From positions 641,734-705,733 of the forward strand of contig CP175956.1 in the NCBI GenBank assembly GCA_046116545.1: a DNA stretch of 64,000 nucleotides, in the 5' to 3' direction. This document shows positions 4,427-64,000 of the stretch, in pieces (within the stretch, counting starts at the first letter, position 1; each line of letters opens with the position of its first letter). Below the pieces are notes generated by a model. That model had not been told where the DNA came from and ran no database searches. It worked only from the letters and a program-made list of their open reading frames with translations. Position numbers and translations under genes: made by a program. Source of the stretch: Candidatus Moraniibacteriota bacterium. GTDB lineage: Bacteria; Patescibacteriota; Minisyncoccia; Moranbacterales; GCA-2747515.

Positions 4427-4456
4427 AAGGGGGCAGGTTCTTGTTGTATTTTTTGA

Positions 4457-4485
4457 GATTGCTTCGTCGTACCTCCTCGCAAAGA
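4457..4485 (+). repeat. 29-nt exact dispersed repeat gattgcttcgtcgtacctcctcgcaaaga (second copy 62208-62236)
   Basis: Identical 29-mer at two distant intergenic sites. Confidence 0.8.
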
Positions 4486-41882: not shown

Positions 41883-43275
41883 ATGTTTTTTTGTTTAATT
41901 ATTTTACGAACACAAAATCTATTATACCATACAATATCACTAAATAATAAACTTCAATTATAAAAACATTAAAGCGTGGGGAAGAGGTCTATAAGATAGT
42001 AGGTGTTGAGTATGTCCTAAATATAAAATAGTTAAAAACATAACTTTGAATCATTTTAGAATACAATGGATACTAGTCTAATACTATAGATATTAAATAT
42101 ATGTGGTATTTTTTTATCAAAATTAAAAGTGTAATAGATAAATATTTTTATGTCGCACAATATTTTAGTATATAAAGTTCATTGGGGAAGAGTTGTATTT
42201 GTAAGTATGCCTTTTATCAATCATTTTTCACTACTAATGCAGTATAAATTTATACTCATATATCATAGGATTCTAAACCATTATTAGTTAACTTTACATA
42301 AACTATAAATCATTTTTATTTTTAAAAAATATTTTATTATTAAGTTTGAATAAAAAATTATAATAAATATTAGCTAAATTAAAATCTAATTCAAAAAGAA
42401 ATGAATATGTATGTACATATGTATTATTTTATAATGTATCTATTTAGTGCTTAATTTGATAATTAGTAGCACTAAATACGCAAGTGACAGATTGACTGGT
42501 GTGTTTGTAAGAAAAAAGTAATACCTATATACCACTAATTTTTTACAAAACGTCTAAGGAGATTTCATGTATACGTTTTGAATAAAAAAGTAATACGTAA
42601 GTACCACTGAAATTGTATATTTTGCAGAGTTAAAAACTAACTAAGTTGTATAAACTCAAATTAACTATTTATAAAACTTCCATAGCATATCTGGGATTAA
42701 AAATTTTATAAATAATTGGATAAAAAACATTTTTAAAATACAAAATAATTTATAAATTATTTAAAATTTAATTTATTAAAATATAGATTTTAAGCTAAAA
42801 TTCATTATTTATCATAAGTAAGATAGTATATAGATCTCCAAAAACTAGAAATATTATATATTTTTGTTTAAAAGGTACTTTTTTGGCTTAAATAAAGGGT
42901 TTTTAATGATGGTATGTCGCATAAGATACATTGTGCGACATAGAATATATCATGAATTCATACCATTTAACCTAGTTCCTTGAATAAATTAGCTTGCTAC
43001 TGATACCTCTAAAAATCGCATTTGACTAACTTTTTAACTTAAAACCATCCATTATACTATTATATACTGGATGGTTTATGTATTTTTATTCTGATTGTTT
43101 ATGCAATCTCTGGGACATTCTTTTTGCTAATCCCATAATTGCAGGACTTAAGGTTCTAATCGAACCATCCGGCATCAGTACTTCAGGTTTTTTAATGCCT
43201 ACAAGTTTACGATTTAATAATCTGCGATGACCTAAGTTTTTTTCGTTATGAAATGCATAACCTCTCCCCTACTTT
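41883..43275. other. 1.4-kb ORF-free AT-rich region with internal direct and inverted repeats
   Basis: No ORF of 60 aa or more on any frame. Direct repeat AAAAAGTAATACSTAWRTACCACT at 42510 and 42587. TGGGGAAGAGKT repeat at 41979 and 42184. ATGTCGCAYAA motif at 42150, 42914 and 42928. Perfect 10-bp inverted repeat at 43043-43079. Confidence 0.6.
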
Positions 43276-43698
43276 TTACAGCATCATTTTAAATACATTA
43301 GTGTCATTTTTTTCGAAACCTTTTTGTTGGTAAAGTTGTATAGCTGCTTTCCTGGCACTATTACTAGTTAATTCTAAGCGACATAACTTCAACTTTTTAG
43401 CTTCTGATATCAAATAATCAATCATTGCACTACCTATCCCCTGTCGCAGATAAGATTTGTCAACAATAACGTCTTCAATAGTACCGACACTGCCTTGACT
43501 GGGAACCAATCGCACAGTAAGTGCACAAAAAGATATGATTTTACCAGAATCTTTTACTACAAAACAAATACAATGATCATCATAAACACATTGCCTCAGA
43601 TAATCTTTGGTAACGCAGTTACGTGTTAATTGCAAAAATAGTTTTTGAACATCTAAAAGGTTATCTTTTACAGCTAACCTTTTAACAATAATATCCAT
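43276..43698 (-). CDS. GNAT family N-acetyltransferase
   Basis: RQGIGSAMIDYLISEAKKLKL...ELTSNSARKAAIQLYQQKGF motif A/B pattern. Confidence 0.75.
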   Translation of the reverse strand: MDIIVKRLAVKDNLLDVQKLFLQLTRNCVTKDYLRQCVYDDHCICFVVKDSGKIISFCALTVRLVPSQGSVGTIEDVIVDKSYLRQGIGSAMIDYLISEAKKLKLCRLELTSNSARKAAIQLYQQKGFEKNDTNVFKMML

Positions 43699-47979: not shown

Positions 47980-48090
47980 ACAATTATACCTTAAATTCAC
48001 TAATATGTCAATCTCTTCTCAAGACCTTAAATTCTAATTCAAAGCTGAATTCAATACCGTTCGAACTTCGTCCCATAGGGCCAACAAATA
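47980..48090 (-). repeat. intergenic repeat module copy C with embedded consensus promoter (TTGACA 48006-48011, 17-nt spacer, TATAAT 47983-47988, minus strand)
   Basis: Reverse complement aligns along about 110 nt with copies A and B; core at 48040-48087. Confidence 0.85.
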
Positions 48091-48877: not shown

Positions 48878-49390
48878 CTATTTATTGCAATAAAAGTGTT
48901 CGAACTTCATCCCATAGGGCCAACAATTTTTATTAAAAATCTCTATAGCGGCATAAACAAATATCCGATCTTTTTCCTTTGCAGCTTCCGAGAGAAATTT
49001 GTAAGGCAACTGATGTTGTTGTTCTGCTCTACTCATATTCCTACTTAACCAATCTTCATGTACCAAGTGTGAAACTATTTCTACAAATTTATCATTGAAT
49101 GAACCACTATTATGACTTACTCTCAAAACCTCATCAAAAGCCACCTTGCTTCCATGCCATCTCTCATTTTTCCAATCTAAAGGTAAGTCACTATAACAAA
49201 GATTAGCAAGATCTACCTGATTGGTACCATTTTTTTTAATCCAATTAGAATCAAGTGTTGCCTTTATTCTTGTTCCGTTATTTTTTTCTTTGTATATCAC
49301 CTTAAATTTTTCGTGTACATTATCAGCAACAGTTATAATCAATCTTTCATAATCAGAGTCTTTGTGTTTATTCAAGACTTCCTTACTCAT
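48878..49390 (-). CDS. hypothetical protein (C-terminus encoded by repeat core copy D)
   Basis: 170 aa; last 12 codons ...WPYGMKFEHFYCNK are read through the repeat core. Confidence 0.4.
   Translation of the reverse strand: MSKEVLNKHKDSDYERLIITVADNVHEKFKVIYKEKNNGTRIKATLDSNWIKKNGTNQVDLANLCYSDLPLDWKNERWHGSKVAFDEVLRVSHNSGSFNDKFVEIVSHLVHEDWLSRNMSRAEQQHQLPYKFLSEAAKEKDRIFVYAAIEIFNKNCWPYGMKFEHFYCNK
48898..48926 (-). repeat. repeat core copy D (truncated module), followed by extended -10 TGgTATAAT 6 nt before the ATG of the downstream gene
   Basis: GTTGGCCCTATGGGATGAAGTTCGAAC on the minus strand; TATAAT at 48852-48857 (minus). Confidence 0.8.
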
Positions 49391-49463
49391 GCAACAAAAA
49401 AATAATTTTTACCTATTTAGTATATCAAAACTTGCCCAAAAACACTATCTATTCTAATAAAAC

Positions 49464-49489
49464 CGTTCGAACCTCGTCCCACAGGGCCA
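49464..49489 (-). repeat. repeat core copy E
   Basis: GTGGCCCTGTGGGACGAGGTTCGAAC on the minus strand, 3' of gene 49583-50122. Confidence 0.8.
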
Positions 49490-50122: not shown

Positions 50123-50245
50123 AGCAAGCCTCCTTGATTGTTTATGAAGTTTTTTCTTATGCTATTAAATCAATAATAACTTGAAATATTAACATATTTT
50201 CATGATTTTGTAAAGACTACATGACTTTATTTCCTACATAAAATC

Positions 50246-50272
50246 GTTCGAACCTCCTCCCATAGGACCCAC
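50246..50272 (-). repeat. repeat core copy F
   Basis: GTGGGTCCTATGGGAGGAGGTTCGAAC on the minus strand; preceded by terminator hairpin 50283-50312 of gene 50328-50573. Confidence 0.8.
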
Positions 50273-58423: not shown

Positions 58424-60883
58424 TTACTTTCTCACCTCAACATCAATTTCTTTTTCAAGAGAACCTATTATGTTTTCTATTTTCTCATCAACATTTTTGG
58501 ATTTCAAAGTTTTCTCATTATCTCCAAAAATTATATGAAATGCCATGGAACGCTCACCAGTTTCTTTATTTGTGTATAGATCAAACAAATCAACATCTTT
58601 TACGAGTTCACCTCCAGCATCATATATGATTCTCTCTACATCACCAACACAAACTCTATCCCCTACCATCATAGATAAATCTCTAGATACAAAAGGGAAC
58701 TTGGCAAGTGGTTCAAAGAAGTTTTCTGATTTCGTTTCAGCTAGCATCACATCAACATTCAACTCACAAACAACTGCACGAGTTTTCTTAAGTCCAAAAT
58801 ATTTACTTGCTTTTTTATCAGTCTCACCCATCCAACCTATCACTTTACCACTTTGCATTTTTATCATCGCTCGTCTTGAAGGATGCAAATTTGGCAAATG
58901 TTCTTTATTTTCATCAAACTCACTATCAAAATAATAATCACCGATATTAATTCTATCAAATAATGTTTCCAACATACCCTTCATTTCAAAGAATTGTGTT
59001 CCGTCATTATCTTTAGAAGCAACGACAGCACCTAAAACAAGTTTTTCATCAGGCAACACAGCGTCAACTGGATCATAAATACGACCAATTTCAAATATTT
59101 GCACTCTATCAAAATAACTAAAGTTCTTTTTTGTAAAATTTAACAAATTTGGCATAAGTGACCTACGCATGATAGCTTGCTCTGGATTCATAGGATTCAT
59201 AAGCGTTATATGATTTTCATCATTCAGTCCTACAGCACGAGCATCATCAAATCCATAAAATGAATAGCTCTTCACTTCATCAAATCCTCCATATACAAAA
59301 ACATCTTTCAATGTTCTTTCAAAGAATCTCTGCTCATTTCTAACAGGTGTCTGTACAGATTCTTTAAGTGGTTTTGATTCTATTTTATCATAACCATACA
59401 TTCTTCCAATTTCTTCTATCAAGTCCTCCTGAGTTTGCAAATCAATCCTTATTGTTGGAATTGTACATATCAATACTTCCCCCTCTCCCTCTGGGAGAGG
59501 GTTGGGGTGAGGGCCATCACATTCAACATTAAGTCTTTCTAAAATACTTTTCATCTCATCAGCTGCTATATCAACACCCAACATTTTAATGACTTTTTTT
59601 GTGTCTAAATTCACACTCCATTTCTCAACTGGCTCAGGATATACATCTGTTACACCTGCCACTGTACCACCTGCCAATTCAATAAATAATTCCACTGCCT
59701 TAGTAGCTGCGATACTTGCTAAATTTGGATCAATGTTTCGTTCAAACCTATAAGCCGCATCTGTTTGCAAGTTATACTTACGTTGAGTTAATCGTACAGA
59801 ACTAGAATCAAAGGAAGCAGCTTCAAGTATGATGTCTTTTGTATCACATGAAATTGCACTACTAAGTCCACCCATAACACCCGCTAACGCAATAGCATCG
59901 CCTTCTCCTGTATTTTCGCCATCAGTTATAACTATATCAGCACTATTTAATTCCACTTCCTGATTATCTAATAACATTATCTTTTCTCCATCACGAGCCT
60001 GTCGTACTTCTATTTTTTTAATATTAGCTGCATCGAAAGCATGTAATGGTTGACCGGTCTCAAGCATTACATAATTTGTAATATCAACAATATTGTTTTT
60101 GGGAGTAATGTCAGAAGACTGCAATCGAGCTTTCATCCAATCAGGCGACTCTTTGATTTCAATATCATCAATCTTTACACCAATATATCTATTACATTTA
60201 GGAGTATCTATAGACACATTCAAAACCCCCTCTCCCTCTGGGAGAGGGCTGGGGTGAGGGCTTTGTTCAGCAGTGTCTTCAAGTGCTTGCATTTCATTAG
60301 CAACACCTGTATAACTCAAACAATCATGTCCACGATTTGGTAAGATATCCAAATCAATTATACTGTCATTCAACTTTACGTACTTAGCAAATTCTTCTCC
60401 AACAGGAGCATCAATAGGCAAAACTATAATGCCATCATGCTCATTACCAATTCCCAATTCATCCTCCGCACAAATCATCCCATTTGATTCTACTCCACGA
60501 ATCTCATTTTTTTTAATTTCAAAAACTTCTGGATCATGTGTAGGAGTTTTTATTATTGGTCGTATTCTTGCACCCACAAGTGCAACAGGAACCTTCTGTC
60601 CAACTTCCAAATTTGGCGCACCACAAACAATCTGTAAACTTCCTCTCCCTTTGGGAGAGGATTGAGGTGAGGGGTCCACATTCACAGTAGCAACGCTAAG
60701 CCTATCAGCATCAGGATGTTTTTCCTTTGTCATCACCTCACCAATAACAACATTATCCAAACCATCAGATAAATCCTCAACACCTTCAACCTCAAAACTA
60801 TGAGCCATAAATAACTCAGCCATTTCATCAACATTCTTTTTTGTCCCACTCAATTCCTTGAGCCAATTGTAACTAAATTTCAT
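58424..60883 (-). CDS. pheT: phenylalanyl-tRNA synthetase beta subunit carrying three in-frame GC-rich palindromic insertions
   Basis: 819 aa; tRNA-binding, B3/B4, B5 and FDX-ACB domains recognisable; insertions at 59478-59515, 60225-60262 and 60641-60678. Confidence 0.9.
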   Translation of the reverse strand: MKFSYNWLKELSGTKKNVDEMAELFMAHSFEVEGVEDLSDGLDNVVIGEVMTKEKHPDADRLSVATVNVDPSPQSSPKGRGSLQIVCGAPNLEVGQKVPVALVGARIRPIIKTPTHDPEVFEIKKNEIRGVESNGMICAEDELGIGNEHDGIIVLPIDAPVGEEFAKYVKLNDSIIDLDILPNRGHDCLSYTGVANEMQALEDTAEQSPHPSPLPEGEGVLNVSIDTPKCNRYIGVKIDDIEIKESPDWMKARLQSSDITPKNNIVDITNYVMLETGQPLHAFDAANIKKIEVRQARDGEKIMLLDNQEVELNSADIVITDGENTGEGDAIALAGVMGGLSSAISCDTKDIILEAASFDSSSVRLTQRKYNLQTDAAYRFERNIDPNLASIAATKAVELFIELAGGTVAGVTDVYPEPVEKWSVNLDTKKVIKMLGVDIAADEMKSILERLNVECDGPHPNPLPEGEGEVLICTIPTIRIDLQTQEDLIEEIGRMYGYDKIESKPLKESVQTPVRNEQRFFERTLKDVFVYGGFDEVKSYSFYGFDDARAVGLNDENHITLMNPMNPEQAIMRRSLMPNLLNFTKKNFSYFDRVQIFEIGRIYDPVDAVLPDEKLVLGAVVASKDNDGTQFFEMKGMLETLFDRINIGDYYFDSEFDENKEHLPNLHPSRRAMIKMQSGKVIGWMGETDKKASKYFGLKKTRAVVCELNVDVMLAETKSENFFEPLAKFPFVSRDLSMMVGDRVCVGDVERIIYDAGGELVKDVDLFDLYTNKETGERSMAFHIIFGDNEKTLKSKNVDEKIENIIGSLEKEIDVEVRK
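59478..59515. repeat. GC-rich palindromic element copy (CCCCCTCTCCCTCTGGGAGAGGGTTGGGGTGAGGGCC) inside pheT
   Basis: Encodes ...GPHPNPLPEGEGEVL... in frame. Confidence 0.8.
60225..60262. repeat. GC-rich palindromic element copy inside pheT
   Basis: AAAACCCCCTCTCCCTCTGGGAGAGGGCTGGGGTGAGGGC; encodes ...SPHPSPLPEGEGVL... Confidence 0.8.
60641..60678. repeat. GC-rich palindromic element copy (diverged) inside pheT
   Basis: CTTCCTCTCCCTTTGGGAGAGGATTGAGGTGAGGGGTCC; encodes ...DPSPQSSPKGRGSLQ... Confidence 0.7.
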
Positions 60884-60901: not shown

Positions 60902-61936
60902 TTAAAACTGTTTCGTAAACCGTACATCACCTCCATGAAACAATCGTATATCATTAATCTTGTATTTCATCATTGCAAGTCGCTCCAATCCAAATCCCCA
61001 AGCAAATCCTTGATATTCACCTCTATCATAACCAGCTGCTTCAAATACATTTTGATGTACCATTCCTGCTCCACCCACTTCTATCCATCCTGTGCGTGAA
61101 CATGTAGAGCATCCAGCACCTCCACAGTTTGTACATGATATATCAAATTCAAATCCTGGTTCTACAAATGGGAAATAACTTGGTCGCAGTCTTGCCTTAA
61201 TTTCTTGTCCAAAAAACTCTGAGAAAAATGTCTCTGCAATATATAGAAAATTTGATACACTCACATCTTCACCAACAACCAATGCTTCAAATTGATGAAA
61301 AGTGTGTTCATGTGACGCGTCTGTTGCCTCATTACGGAAAACTCTCCCAGGTACAATCATTCTAAAGGGTGGTTTATGTTTTTCCATGTACCTTACCTGT
61401 ACACCTGAAGTCTGAGTACGCATTACTGTACCAGTTCCTTTCTTACGACCTTCCTCACGTGAAATCCAAAAAGTATCCTGCATATCTCGTCCAGGATGAT
61501 CATCTGGCATATTTATAGCATCAAAGTTATATGACTCACTCTCCAAGTCAGGTCCGTCAGCAATATCAAATCCCATTGATGTAAAAATATTTTCAATATC
61601 TCTTTGTACAATACTCAAAGGATGTAAATGCCCATGAGCATGTTTCGATCCAGGAGCAGATACATCTATCCACTCTTTTTTCTCATCAATAACACTCTCT
61701 AGTGTCATTTTTTTGTCATCTATCAAATGTTGTATTTCTTTTTTAGTTTCATTTGCCAATGGTCCGATTTCCTTTTTTTCTTCTACAGATAAGTCTTTCA
61801 ATCCTTTTAAAATCTCGTTAAAAGCACTCTTCTTACCTAGATAAGAAATTCTAATATCCTCGATAGCATCTAAAGTATCAGCACTTGAAATCTGCTCCAC
61901 AGCATTGTCTTTAATTTGTTGAATTTGTTCTTTCAT
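60902..61936 (-). CDS. pheS: phenylalanyl-tRNA synthetase alpha subunit
   Basis: Class II motifs (FRNE, GFAWGFGLERL), HPxRDMQD region. Confidence 0.95.
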   Translation of the reverse strand: MKEQIQQIKDNAVEQISSADTLDAIEDIRISYLGKKSAFNEILKGLKDLSVEEKKEIGPLANETKKEIQHLIDDKKMTLESVIDEKKEWIDVSAPGSKHAHGHLHPLSIVQRDIENIFTSMGFDIADGPDLESESYNFDAINMPDDHPGRDMQDTFWISREEGRKKGTGTVMRTQTSGVQVRYMEKHKPPFRMIVPGRVFRNEATDASHEHTFHQFEALVVGEDVSVSNFLYIAETFFSEFFGQEIKARLRPSYFPFVEPGFEFDISCTNCGGAGCSTCSRTGWIEVGGAGMVHQNVFEAAGYDRGEYQGFAWGFGLERLAMMKYKINDIRLFHGGDVRFTKQF

Positions 61937-61963
61937 AAAAAAATATTACCTATTGTCATTCTG

Positions 61964-62036
61964 AATTTATTTCAGAATCTAGGTTTAAGTTAATCTCATA
62001 GTAAATTTGAGATCCTGAGATAAATTCAGGATGACA
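61964..62036. repeat. inverted repeat upstream of pheS containing hairpin-GAATGACAA family copy 3 (61964-61990) and partner TTCAGGATGACA (62025-62036)
   Basis: TGTCATTCTGAATTTATTTCAGAATCT ... TAAATTCAGGATGACA nested inverted repeats immediately 5' of the pheS start. Confidence 0.7.
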
Positions 62037-62136
62037 TTTACTATATTAGCATACCACAAGAAAAAATAAAGGTTCTACTATTTATTTTTACAAAGCCATT
62101 TAACCGATCACACACTTCAAATAAGTTTCCAATGGT

Positions 62137-62236
62137 CTTTGCGAGCAGACGTGATATTTTGTGTATTTTGCGAAGCAATCTCTACAAATTTATTAGCACA
62201 CTTTCAAGATTGCTTCGTCGTACCTCCTCGCAAAGA
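62137..62236. repeat. nested inverted-repeat structure (outer TCTTTGCGAG/CTCGCAAAGA, inner GCGAAGCAATC/GATTGCTTCG) containing the 29-nt dispersed repeat
   Basis: Two concentric 10-bp stems; 3' arm identical to 4457-4485. Confidence 0.7.
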
Positions 62237-62359
62237 CGTTACTTTTGAATATTTTCTTACAACCACTCTTTAAGGTGTGAGAAATTACAAAGTTTTTATT
62301 GATTTCGCTAACATTTCGTGCTATTCTAGTTCAATCAAATAAAGTTCATTTAAAATGAG

Positions 62360-62536
62360 GTACTCGTAAATGAAAAGATTTACACCATACAGGAATAAAC
62401 TCAGATTCCCACAATTATGGGCAAATTATAAAGATGACTTTAATTCTTTCTTTGACCATACGGGACATATGAATACAAATGGCCATCGTGCATACGATAG
62501 ACTGAAACAAAAACGACGTATGAGAATGTGTTATAA
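62360..62536 (+). CDS. tiny basic ORF (58 aa)
   Basis: MKRFTPYRNKLRFPQLWANYKDDF...KRRMRMCYKKS; GAGG RBS; below the ORF-track threshold. Confidence 0.3.
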
Positions 62537-62560
62537 AAAATCATAAGGAGGTATCATTAT

Positions 62561-62740
62561 ATGTTTTCATTCTTAGAAGATGTAGCTGGTATATTTATTT
62601 TTTTAATAATGTGCATAGCATTTGGACTTGCAACAATTATAGAGACACTACATTTCTTTTGGAAAAGTTTTTTCACTAATCTTAGAATTATTAGAGAAAA
62701 TGCACGCACTGACAGCAATATACATCCTACATTATAAGGA
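62561..62740 (+). CDS. tiny membrane ORF (59 aa)
   Basis: Strong RBS AAGGAGGT 8 nt upstream; one TM helix. Confidence 0.4.
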
Positions 62741-62748
62741 GTTTAAAA

Positions 62749-62877
62749 ATGACACTACCTGTTGAAGTTTTTGTTTTACTTGGAATTGTAGCTGGAACAC
62801 TTCTCGTGAAGTCTTTCAAAACTTTTTGCAAAATTGCAAAAAAAAATAGATGCAAAAAAAAAGTACAAGGCACATAA
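62749..62877 (+). CDS. tiny membrane ORF (42 aa)
   Basis: RBS AAGGAG upstream; TM helix then Lys-rich tail. Confidence 0.3.
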   Translation: MTLPVEVFVLLGIVAGTLLVKSFKTFCKIAKKNRCKKKVQGT

Positions 62878-63211
62878 CCTAAGTACAAGCATTGTTTTTT
62901 CTTACATTTGCTTTTCACTTGGATTATTCTACATTTCTGTATTTATCTGCAATCAGTTTTTTACACTAATGTTTATATTGACATTCGCGTGTTTACACTT
63001 CAACCATTTTGTTGATGATTGTACAGCAAGTGCTCAAAAATCCATAACAAATTAACCTCTCCCCATTTTAAGGGGGAGATGTCCATAGGACAGAGGGGGT
63101 TTTTGTAAAATAAAGTTTATTGTTATAGTTCTAACCCCTCCGCCTTACAGACACCTACTCTTCAAAAGGGATGAGGTTTGAAACAATGACATAATTAGCA
63201 ATTCAATTATT

Positions 63212-63250
63212 GAAACTCAAAAGCTCCACGGAAATCCGCGGAGCTTTTAA
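63212..63250. terminator. bidirectional terminator
   Basis: aaaagctccacggaaatccgcggagctttt flanked by T-runs on both strands. Confidence 0.8.
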
Positions 63251-63283
63251 ATTTGTCATAACTTATTTTCGATTAAATTATCA

Positions 63284-64000
63284 CTATAGTGATAATTTAA
63301 TGAAAAACTTTTTACCAACTTTCAAAACTTTCCCATCGTCCTTAGCTTGAAGTAAATATTTTACATCTGTAATTTTTTCTTTATTTATAGAGACACCCCC
63401 TTGTTCAACTTTCCTTCGAGCATCTCCTTTGCTAGTCGCACCCTCAACCGTAACAAGTAATTCCAGTATATTAATCCCCTCTTGTGAGTTAAAAATTTTA
63501 ACATCATCTGGGATTTCTTTTTTTGAGAAAGTATTTATAAAATAATCTTGTGCTTCTTGCGCTTTTTCTTCACCATGGAAAAGTTTTGTGATCTCAAAAG
63601 CTAATTTTATTTTTGCATCACGAGGATTTTCCATTTGTGTCATTTCTTCAATTTCTCCCAAAGTCAGTCTGGTACATCCCAATGCTAATGGCTTTATCAT
63701 ACCATCTGATTGAGACATGACCGCACCAAATAAATCACTTGATTCTAAATTTAAAAATATACCTGTACCATTTGATTTGGACATTAATTGTCCAGTAATT
63801 TCATCAGCAATTAAATTATTAGCAATAACAAACTTCTCTTTCCCTGTTGTTTTTTGTAATAATGTCCTTCCTGCTAATGCATTAAAGATCTGATCAGTAC
63901 CACACATTTCAACATCAACATCTAATGCAACACTATCGTATCCCTGCATCAGTGGATATAGAAACTCATGTAAATAAATTGGCTTACCGTCTTTCAACCT
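63284..64000 (-). CDS. tyrS: tyrosyl-tRNA synthetase, C-terminal portion (gene continues beyond window end)
   Basis: [16 protein letters not shown]-like LMSKSNG, C-terminal S4 domain [18 protein letters not shown]. Confidence 0.8.

Follow-up and report, generated by a model that had tools for sequence, protein, structure and literature searches.

BoxC elements, also known as potential intrastrand triplex (PIT) elements or as the TM_ECO motif, are small bacterial repeats described by Bachellier et al. in the 1990s, by Hoyne and Maher (2000) and by Holder et al. (2015; PMC4666352). The motif has been defined as 5'-CCCTCNCCC N3-6 GGGNGAGGG N3 GGGNGAGGG, 34-37 nt in length and with one mismatched triplet allowed, and it has been reported for proteobacteria (262 genomes), the 23 copies listed for E. 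coli K-12 being all intergenic (PMC4666352). According to the same study, the motif is associated with local genomic variability and not with mobile replicons; the isolated E. coli strand forms a triplex in vitro, as observed by circular dichroism (CD) and nuclear magnetic resonance (NMR), with no stable triplex in duplex DNA or in vivo, and tests in E. coli revealed no promoter, terminator or in-vivo polymerase-blocking activity (PMC4666352). Repeats of a different kind, the Rickettsia palindromic elements (RPEs; families 1-10), are Rickettsia-specific, about 105-150 bp long, and correspond to segments of 35-50 aa in proteins (Ogata et al. 2000, 2002; for reviews see PMC10969869 and PMC3184786). 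Here we analyze a stretch of 64,000 nt from the contig CP175956.1 of a Candidatus Moraniibacteriota bacterium (hereafter the window, at its full length), in which three copies of the BoxC element reside inside the coding sequence of one essential gene, pheT, for the beta subunit of phenylalanine--tRNA ligase (PheRS). We consider it likely, with a probability of roughly 0.75, that they are tolerated and translated copies of a known, phylum-spanning triplex-motif repeat, located in permissive loops of the PheT protein and subject to ongoing birth and decay.

The gene and the three copies, numbered in the order of the encoded protein, are as follows:

58424..60883, minus strand: pheT, encoding the beta subunit of phenylalanine--tRNA ligase (819 aa); all three copies lie within it
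60639..60674, plus strand (motif orientation): TM/BoxC copy, site 1, encoding DPSPQSSPKGRGS, aa 70-82, in a beta-hairpin loop of the tRNA_bind (OB-fold) domain
60226..60261, plus strand: TM/BoxC copy, site 2, encoding SPHPSPLPEGEG, aa 208-219, in the linker that joins the tRNA_bind and B3_4 domains
59479..59514, plus strand: TM/BoxC copy, site 3, encoding GPHPNPLPEGEG, aa 457-468, in a B5-domain loop

These coordinates come from a repeat finder, which reported one family of three 36-nt copies, and from a pattern search; they agree within 1-4 nt with those given in a first-pass annotation of the window, which had noticed a GC-rich element of about 38 nt three times inside pheT. The sense strand of pheT corresponds to the C-rich complement of the motif. 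All three copies are in frame with the gene and free of stop codons, and translation of the open reading frame (ORF) on the sense strand confirms the Pro/Gly/Glu-rich peptides that they had been said to add. Their GC content (72% for the copy at 59479-59514, 75% for 60226-60261 and 58% for 60639-60674) contrasts, again as previously remarked, with an AT-rich background, the window having 32.4% GC and pheT without the elements 34.8%. The copies at sites 2 and 3 are identical at 35 of 36 positions, and the site 1 copy agrees with these two at 29-30 of 36. They lie at most 1.2 kb apart, and the 19-nt core of the hairpin has three matches in the window against 0.00 expected from 100 dinucleotide-preserving shuffles. 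Additional copies, degenerate ones included, were not detected in the 64-kb window with an nhmmer profile of the element.

The family was identified by a full-text literature search with the DNA blocks of the element. A regular expression of the published pattern matches exactly at 59481-59513 (site 3) and 60228-60260 (site 2), and the site 1 copy (60641-60673) departs from it by three substitutions, all within one compensated triplet. In a blastn search with a 42-nt query (window positions 59476-59517), 5400 of the 5426 complete E. coli genomes were matched, at a median of 15 places each and always in unannotated DNA, the best match having 94.7% identity over 38 nt; compared by eye with copy no. 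1 in Table 1 of PMC4666352, the query is identical at 31 of 34 positions. The exact motif was also found in at least 120 stretches from Pseudomonas, Enterobacter, Acidobacteriota, Planctomycetota, Verrucomicrobiota, Chloroflexota, Myxococcota, Omnitrophota and others, on 353 plasmid records of PLSDB, conjugative plasmids among them, on at least 120 IMG/VR contigs, and in two phages of Campylobacter, an AT-rich host (A18a, MG065686.1 13636-13669, and A11a, MG065691.1 160454-160487). The pattern matches at sites 2 and 3, together with the identity to E. coli copies and the spread over phyla, imply that the element is not lineage-specific; all three segments are evidently copies of the known BoxC/PIT/TM_ECO repeat, which is among the most widely distributed small repeats known. 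[quoted passage not shown]

Two intergenic sites, 43258-43270 and 63054-63081, had moreover been listed as half-site-like relatives of the element. They have in common with it only an 8-11-nt string, (AA)CCTCTCCC(C), and were rejected as relatives, as they are devoid of the other two arms and are undetected by the nhmmer profile; the 63054 site belongs to a separate, unrelated branched hairpin. The segment 43257-43271 (AACCTCTCCCC) reads on the minus strand as GGGGAGAGGTT followed directly by ATG, and resembles a strong Shine-Dalgarno (SD) sequence with a start codon; the ORF that begins at this ATG comprises only 8 codons, and the site is located just downstream of the minus-strand ORF 43276-43698. 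Rfam searches of the 58-64 kb region (E ≤ 1) and of the whole window (gathering thresholds) returned only noise-level matches and no tRNAs.

The element is 34-36 nt long and consists of three blocks: the first is C-rich, the second is the G-rich complement of the first, and the third, GGGTGAGGG, is again G-rich. Each copy folds into a GC hairpin of 8-9 bp with an energy of about -16 to -21 kcal/mol; thus, the hairpin that had been described is present in every copy, but it is not the entire structure, as GGGTGAGGG is a part of the three-block motif and can serve as a third strand on the hairpin. The stability of the hairpin was considered as a sign of function and rejected, with z values of only -0.3 to -2.5 relative to dinucleotide shuffles.

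The triplets C·G*G, T·A*A and T·A*T are those of the purine triplex motif. At sites 2 and 3 all nine positions of the copies give allowed purine-motif triplets, and the site 1 copy belongs to a variant subfamily (TCCTCTCCC / GGGAGAGGA / AGGTGAGGG) in which C·G*G is changed to T·A*A, and which is also present in the unrelated loci L026, L119, L134, L187 and L277. Compensation was counted in silico over 297 distinct copies pooled from all fetched loci, the numbers referring to sequences and not to independent events. Among 35 G-to-A changes in block 2, 17 have T at the block 1 partner and A at the mirror position of block 3, and four have T at the partner and T at the mirror position, so that 21 of 35 are compensated in both other blocks. 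Watson-Crick compensation without a corresponding change in block 3 was found once in the 35 cases, and the same-index position of block 3 is likewise altered in only one. Since the changes lead from one purine-motif triplet to another, compensation extends over three strands, and its occurrence at the mirror position would be the pattern expected for a purine-motif triplex rather than for a plain hairpin accompanied by a direct repeat. These counts support the view that conservation in this family may concern the three-block structure or some factor by which it is read.

The host protein contains all five Pfam domains of PheT: tRNA_bind (45-163), B3_4 (229-405), B5 (424-498), tRNA_synthFbeta (505-710) and FDX-ACB (728-818). 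Its nearest homologs are 71% identical, and those with a name come from Moranbacteria, Parcubacteria or Patescibacteria; judged by the closest PheT homologs, the host is a bacterium of the Candidate Phyla Radiation (CPR), and apparently Moranbacteria-like. According to phmmer, the sequence aligns from end to end with bacterial PheRS beta chains of known structure, the best match in the PDB being 6p8t_A (E = 1e-121). We aligned 120 PheT homologs, with nine genes codon-aligned from fetched DNA, and used an AlphaFold model calculated from 58 sequences (mean pLDDT, i.e. predicted local distance difference test, 87.3) to locate the inserts.

In most orthologs, the two strands that flank site 1 in the OB-fold tRNA_bind domain are joined by a turn of four residues, G-x-E-E. 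The loop comprises 13 residues in the window protein and in the homologs P0002 and P0003, which for the window copy is nine codons more than the G-x-E-E loop; it aligns to an 8-residue gap in 6p8t_A and is modeled as coil (69-82), with pLDDT below 50 at 73-80. A canonical copy with an identical left junction (V-N-V followed by E-P-S-P) is found at site 1 of P0046, a protein of 53% identity, which argues for a probable independent event at a hot spot; in the fetched DNA, the canonical copy at the site 1 junction is that of L127. The site 3 insert, of 8-9 additional codons, is present only in the window PheT and in none of the 120 homologs retrieved; it aligns to gaps in 6p8t_A and lies in a modeled coil (457-469) between the strands 454-456 and 470-475 (block pLDDT 79 and 66). 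A fourth loop, around aa 110 of the window protein and likewise gapped in the phmmer alignment to the PDB, carries a pristine copy in P0003, a copy with two mismatches in P0010 and a remnant in P0002. At site 2, which is modeled in the coil 203-221, relatives carry a segment of the same length. The copies in tRNA_bind and B5 are by these comparisons clear insertions, and the one in the linker is apparently not a clean lineage-specific insertion; hence, the earlier idea of three lineage-specific insertions stands for sites 1 and 3, which are absent from most or all orthologs, and falls for site 2. The accompanying prediction that the segments occupy surface loops agrees with the ortholog alignment, the alignment to 6p8t_A and the AlphaFold model, all of which place them in coil loops, where the confidence of the model is lowered, and none of the three lies in the B3/4 editing core or in the catalytic-like module.

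The same loops also accommodate other sequences. At the site 1 loop, P0033, P0038, P0041, P0043 and P0045 have inserts of other types, e.g. tandem IPLNPPLQKGEA or peptides of the SQTDADETQTN type, and in P0045 (L369) a different GC-rich palindrome is found there. At the B5 loop, P0028, P0029, P0039 and P0041 contain inserted domains of about 200 aa, assigned to PF10706 or PF06821 in Pfam. The presence of so many other types of inserts at identical positions indicates that the PheT loops are permissive.

The copies in pheT differ widely in their state of preservation. In P0001, P0004, P0005 and P0023, site 2 has shifted to AT-rich codons at the DNA level and no longer forms the hairpin, while the peptide core PNPLPEG is kept, with at least six synonymous and no non-synonymous differences; this shows that purifying selection acts on the segment in the relatives and that it evolves there as coding sequence. 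P0003 has lost the site 2 element to decay in DNA and peptide alike, and P0002 has a near-intact copy at this site, of a different subtype and in a different frame. The latter two proteins are 90% identical, yet each possesses a good copy where the other has decayed or deleted one. Comparison of the window gene with every relative reveals identical codons at only 52-61% of identical amino acids, and with synonymous sites so heavily changed the pristine copies must be young or renewed. From the near-identity of the site 2 and site 3 copies we infer a recent copying or gene-conversion event within pheT. The similarity of pheT to its relatives is mosaic along the gene, which suggests possible recombination. 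In this picture a few permissive loops are hit repeatedly by insertion or conversion, after which the copies decay with an AT bias, are occasionally deleted, or in some cases leave a peptide that becomes fixed; this turnover fits the published association of the motif with local genomic variability.

In other bacteria we counted coding copies only if the gene was verified with Pfam, as long open frames in GC-rich taxa are often spurious. Copies with the exact pattern were found in frame in a YgiQ radical-SAM protein of Polaromonas, where the encoded peptide is again SPHPSPLPEGEG, in LysS, between the anticodon and catalytic domains, in Tex, and in a Fic protein from a metagenome. A further in-frame copy, with the peptide NPHPGPLPEGEG, was identified in ribosomal protein S7 on the metagenome contig Ga0265316_10003472 (L262 5207-5878; Pfam E = 8e-51), within an insertion of about 57 aa relative to the Pfam profile. 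The expectation that additional genes would carry in-frame copies was thus confirmed, in other organisms. The intergenic location is an observation on E. coli and not a part of the definition of the motif, and it fails in other phyla as well.

A comparison with the described families of small repeats places the element as follows. With BoxC/PIT/TM_ECO it shares the three-block pattern, the length and the compensated triplet variation, and no associated transposase, terminal inverted repeats (TIRs) or target-site duplications (TSDs) are known for either. The differences are in the setting: BoxC is intergenic in E. coli K-12, whereas the window copies lie in frame inside an essential gene of a CPR/Patescibacteria genome with 32% GC, and there are no inverted pairs of type A and type B among them. 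RPEs, which are selfish palindromic repeats, resemble the window copies in residing in frame in housekeeping genes of a reduced, AT-rich genome, at positions where the protein fold tolerates them, and in being translated. The analogy drawn by the first-pass annotation is therefore apt with respect to behavior, i.e. in-frame residence in fold-compatible loops, but the element is not a member of the RPE family, from which it is set apart by length (34-36 nt, 11-12 aa) and host, being a GC-rich triplex motif shared across phyla. Yeast mitochondrial GC clusters and byp elements are likewise GC-rich palindromic mini-elements that invade coding regions of an AT-rich genome; they are organellar, unrelated in sequence, and some of them are bypassed by the ribosome, in contrast to the window copies, for which the evidence favors plain translation.

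REP and REPIN sequences are mobilized by RAYT transposases (IS200/IS605-like TnpA) from a cognate gene, carry a GTAG or CGTC tag at one end of the palindrome, and are species-specific and essentially extragenic (PMC3733652). They are similar to the window element in being short (20-40 nt), GC-rich, palindromic and multi-copy, and differ in that the latter has a third block, is near-invariant across phyla and is not known to have a mobilizing gene; the GTAG or CGTC tag is absent from the window copies, which start with CCCTC / CCTCTCCC and end with GGTGAGGG. The intragenic ERIC, BRE, BOX and RUP repeats (PMC3184786) are also small repeats with open frames, fused to or inserted into protein genes, but their sequences are different, they are about 100-170 bp long, and they are confined to particular genera or classes. 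Hallmarks of MITEs were not found around the three copies: on the sense strand, the flanks (GATGG and GAAGT, CAAAG and GTTTT, GTGGA and AGTTT) contain no TSD, and there are no TIRs, the only inverted repeat being the internal 9-bp stem. On these features, the element is evidently neither a REP/REPIN nor a classical MITE.

These results can be accommodated in a simple scenario. Copies of the repeat would have entered pheT, or would have been renewed in it, at positions encoding surface loops of non-catalytic modules. The element has a length divisible by three, and its consensus is open in five of six frames (TGA occurs in one G-rich frame only), so the copies would simply be translated, and PheRS would tolerate the Pro/Gly/Glu-rich extensions of its loops. 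The copies themselves would be selfish or neutral passengers rather than functional parts, and PheT might be over-represented among the recipient genes because its loops are unusually permissive and because existing copies could seed nearby ones, by conversion or template switching.

Several observations weigh against this scenario. All three copies of the window are in pheT, which accounts for 3.8% of its length (P about 6e-5 under uniform placement), and in 92 kb from eight relatives four of five independent events are in pheT, which makes up 20% of that DNA (P about 0.007), the sole exception being an intergenic copy upstream of pheS in L127; such clustering is not predicted by a purely random selfish spread. 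The window, L121 and L125 share the 32 nt of the site 1 copy without any difference, in genes that are only 73% identical at the nucleotide level, and the chance of such an identity is 0.73^32, or about 4e-5; it could mean that the nucleotide sequence itself is under selection. A metagenome scan biased toward AT-rich third codon positions yielded 160 copies on 120 contigs with GC of 0.25-0.7, of which only a few are coding and most are intergenic, with stop codons within 30 codons on one or both sides, also on the contigs with the lowest GC; the coding location is thus a minority state that needs explanation. At site 2 there is no net gain of length relative to distant orthologs or to 6p8t_A, in which an unrelated linker is equally long. 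Finally, a mobilizing enzyme, a TSD or a donor copy was not identified in the 64 kb, which correspond to about 6% of a typical CPR genome.

The most serious rival, which we nevertheless consider unlikely, holds that the copies function as nucleic-acid elements and that selection on DNA or RNA structure maintains them in pheT; they might, e.g., be a triplex or hairpin modulating replication or transcription through pheST, a hairpin in the mRNA, or an SD-like GGGAGAGG by which ribosomes are paced between the domains of PheT. The strong enrichment in pheT, both in the window and in relatives, would be accounted for in this way, as would the persistence of pristine copies despite a mutation bias that erodes them elsewhere, the three-block compensation over the 297 copies, by which the structure itself appears constrained, and the identity of 32/32 nt at site 1 across lineages in which about 40% of synonymous sites have otherwise changed. 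The C-rich strand is moreover the sense strand in all pheT copies (about five independent events), with both orientations occurring in genes of other phyla; this bias is only suggestive. The site 1 identity was rejected as proof of vertical inheritance under nucleotide-level selection, given that the variant subfamily occurs in unrelated loci and that the similarity of pheT to its relatives is mosaic; both facts can explain the identity without selection. Further, most close relatives do not have the inserts of sites 1 and 3, and at site 2 the DNA decays, with the peptide kept or not, so that no structure would be required for the function of pheT in this clade. The hairpin energies are unexceptional against composition-matched shuffles, and the published E. 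coli tests detected no effect on promoter, terminator or polymerase in vivo (PMC4666352).

It is tempting to go further and to regard BoxC as an actively homing element, carried between hosts on plasmids and phages, in which three-stranded DNA would be recognized by a phylum-spanning copying machinery, and which in this CPR clade would repeatedly re-seed the loops of PheT, with the nucleotide sequence maintained for the function of pheST and old copies domesticated as linker peptides. We consider this composite possibility doubtful. If it were true, the series of filled, empty and decayed sites in pheT could reveal how BoxC elements move.

The remaining alternatives fare much worse than the reading of tolerated, translated BoxC copies. 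A new, lineage-specific MITE-like palindromic repeat, unrelated to known families, would agree with elements that stand out as GC-rich from an AT-rich genome and that, like RPEs, lie in frame within a housekeeping gene, but it is highly improbable in view of the exact BoxC/TM_ECO pattern, the 95% identity to E. coli copies, the spread over phyla, plasmids and viral contigs, and flanks devoid of terminal inverted repeats or target-site duplications. That the segments are not insertions at all, but ancestral or convergent low-complexity loops rich in Pro and Gly, would be in line with the equally long site 2 linker of distant orthologs and solved structures and with the commonness of such loops; there is very little chance of this, as sites 1 and 3 are absent from nearly all of the 120 homologs and from solved PheRS, and as 29-35 of 36 nt are shared among the segments, and with a repeat found in thousands of genomes, which protein convergence cannot yield. 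We also find it hardly credible that the inserts are removed by translational bypassing, frameshifting or RNA processing, as in yeast mitochondrial byp elements or in T4 gene 60. Each copy does have a stable hairpin, and Rfam gives a match to the frameshift element Antizyme_FSE at 59468-59519, but this match is sub-threshold and at noise level (21 bits against a gathering score of 40, E = 0.6), the frame is kept without stop codons, and the decayed copies in relatives evolve like coding sequence; the synonymous-only divergence of PNPLPEG makes bypass, splicing or frameshifting unlikely. An artefact of assembly or binning, e.g. chimeric reads from a GC-rich organism, has a negligible probability, for although the window is probably metagenome-assembled and co-occurring bacteria have the element in abundance, each copy is short, keeps the frame and is contiguous on both flanks with AT-rich pheT codons, and equivalent copies occupy the same codon positions in independent NCBI, ENA and JGI assemblies.

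The surroundings of the gene and the other repeats of the window may be described briefly. Directly upstream of pheT lies the gene for the other subunit:

60902..61936, minus strand: pheS (alpha subunit), with the Pfam domains tRNA-synt_2d and Phe_tRNA-synt_N

The nhmmer profile detected no copy of the element in pheS. The junction between the two genes varies among relatives: it is occupied by a gene of the bAvd / 23S_rRNA_IVP family in L121 (1173-1544), by an unannotated gene of 130 aa in L125 (3461-3853) and by a NUDIX gene in L127 (9441-9944), and in L122 a Fic gene (400-1446) adjoins pheT on its upstream side. Between the start of pheS and a tyrS fragment (63284-63997, minus strand), the window has a spacer of 1.35 kb (61937-63283) with no ORF longer than 73 aa and no match in Rfam, which corresponds to about 0.4 kb in L123; it holds a repeat at 62202 and a branched hairpin (63047-63105) that ends in a T-run. 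The former is one of two copies of a 35-nt repeat, GATTGCTTCGTCGTACCTCCTCGCAAAGA, at 4451-4485 and 62202-62236, which are 94% identical and 58 kb apart, the latter being located in this non-coding stretch upstream of pheS. Another family of about 31 nt (AAWACCGTTCGAACYTCGTCCCAYAGGGCCA) has copies at 48053-48083, 48892-48922, 49459-49489 and 50240-50270, each just 3' of consecutive minus-strand ORFs, and reverse-complement copies embedded in two 79-nt repeats (500-578 and 1418-1496); this family is possibly terminator-like or REP-like in character.

To our knowledge, BoxC/PIT elements have been known for about thirty years with no established function or means of spread. Literature searches on the inserted peptides and on palindromic in-frame elements of CPR bacteria gave no result, and relative to the searchable literature, four points appear to be new: that the host belongs to the CPR, that the copies reside in frame in essential genes of translation, that the same loops are used recurrently, and that the variation is compensated three ways. 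As BoxC has been described as strictly intergenic and TM_ECO has been catalogued in proteobacteria, the present finding broadens the family in host range as well as in genomic niche. Odd Pro/Gly-rich peptides in predicted proteins (PHPNPLPEGEG, PSPQPSPKGRG, PLPLGEGWGEG) are also explained by it as derived from a repeat, which calls for caution on the part of annotators and structure modelers. In PheRS, the inserts most likely extend the loops without harm, and for the repeat family, the PheT series, with pristine, decayed, deleted and re-inserted copies in four loops, constitutes, together with the triple compensation, material on how such elements are copied and on selection for the triplex.

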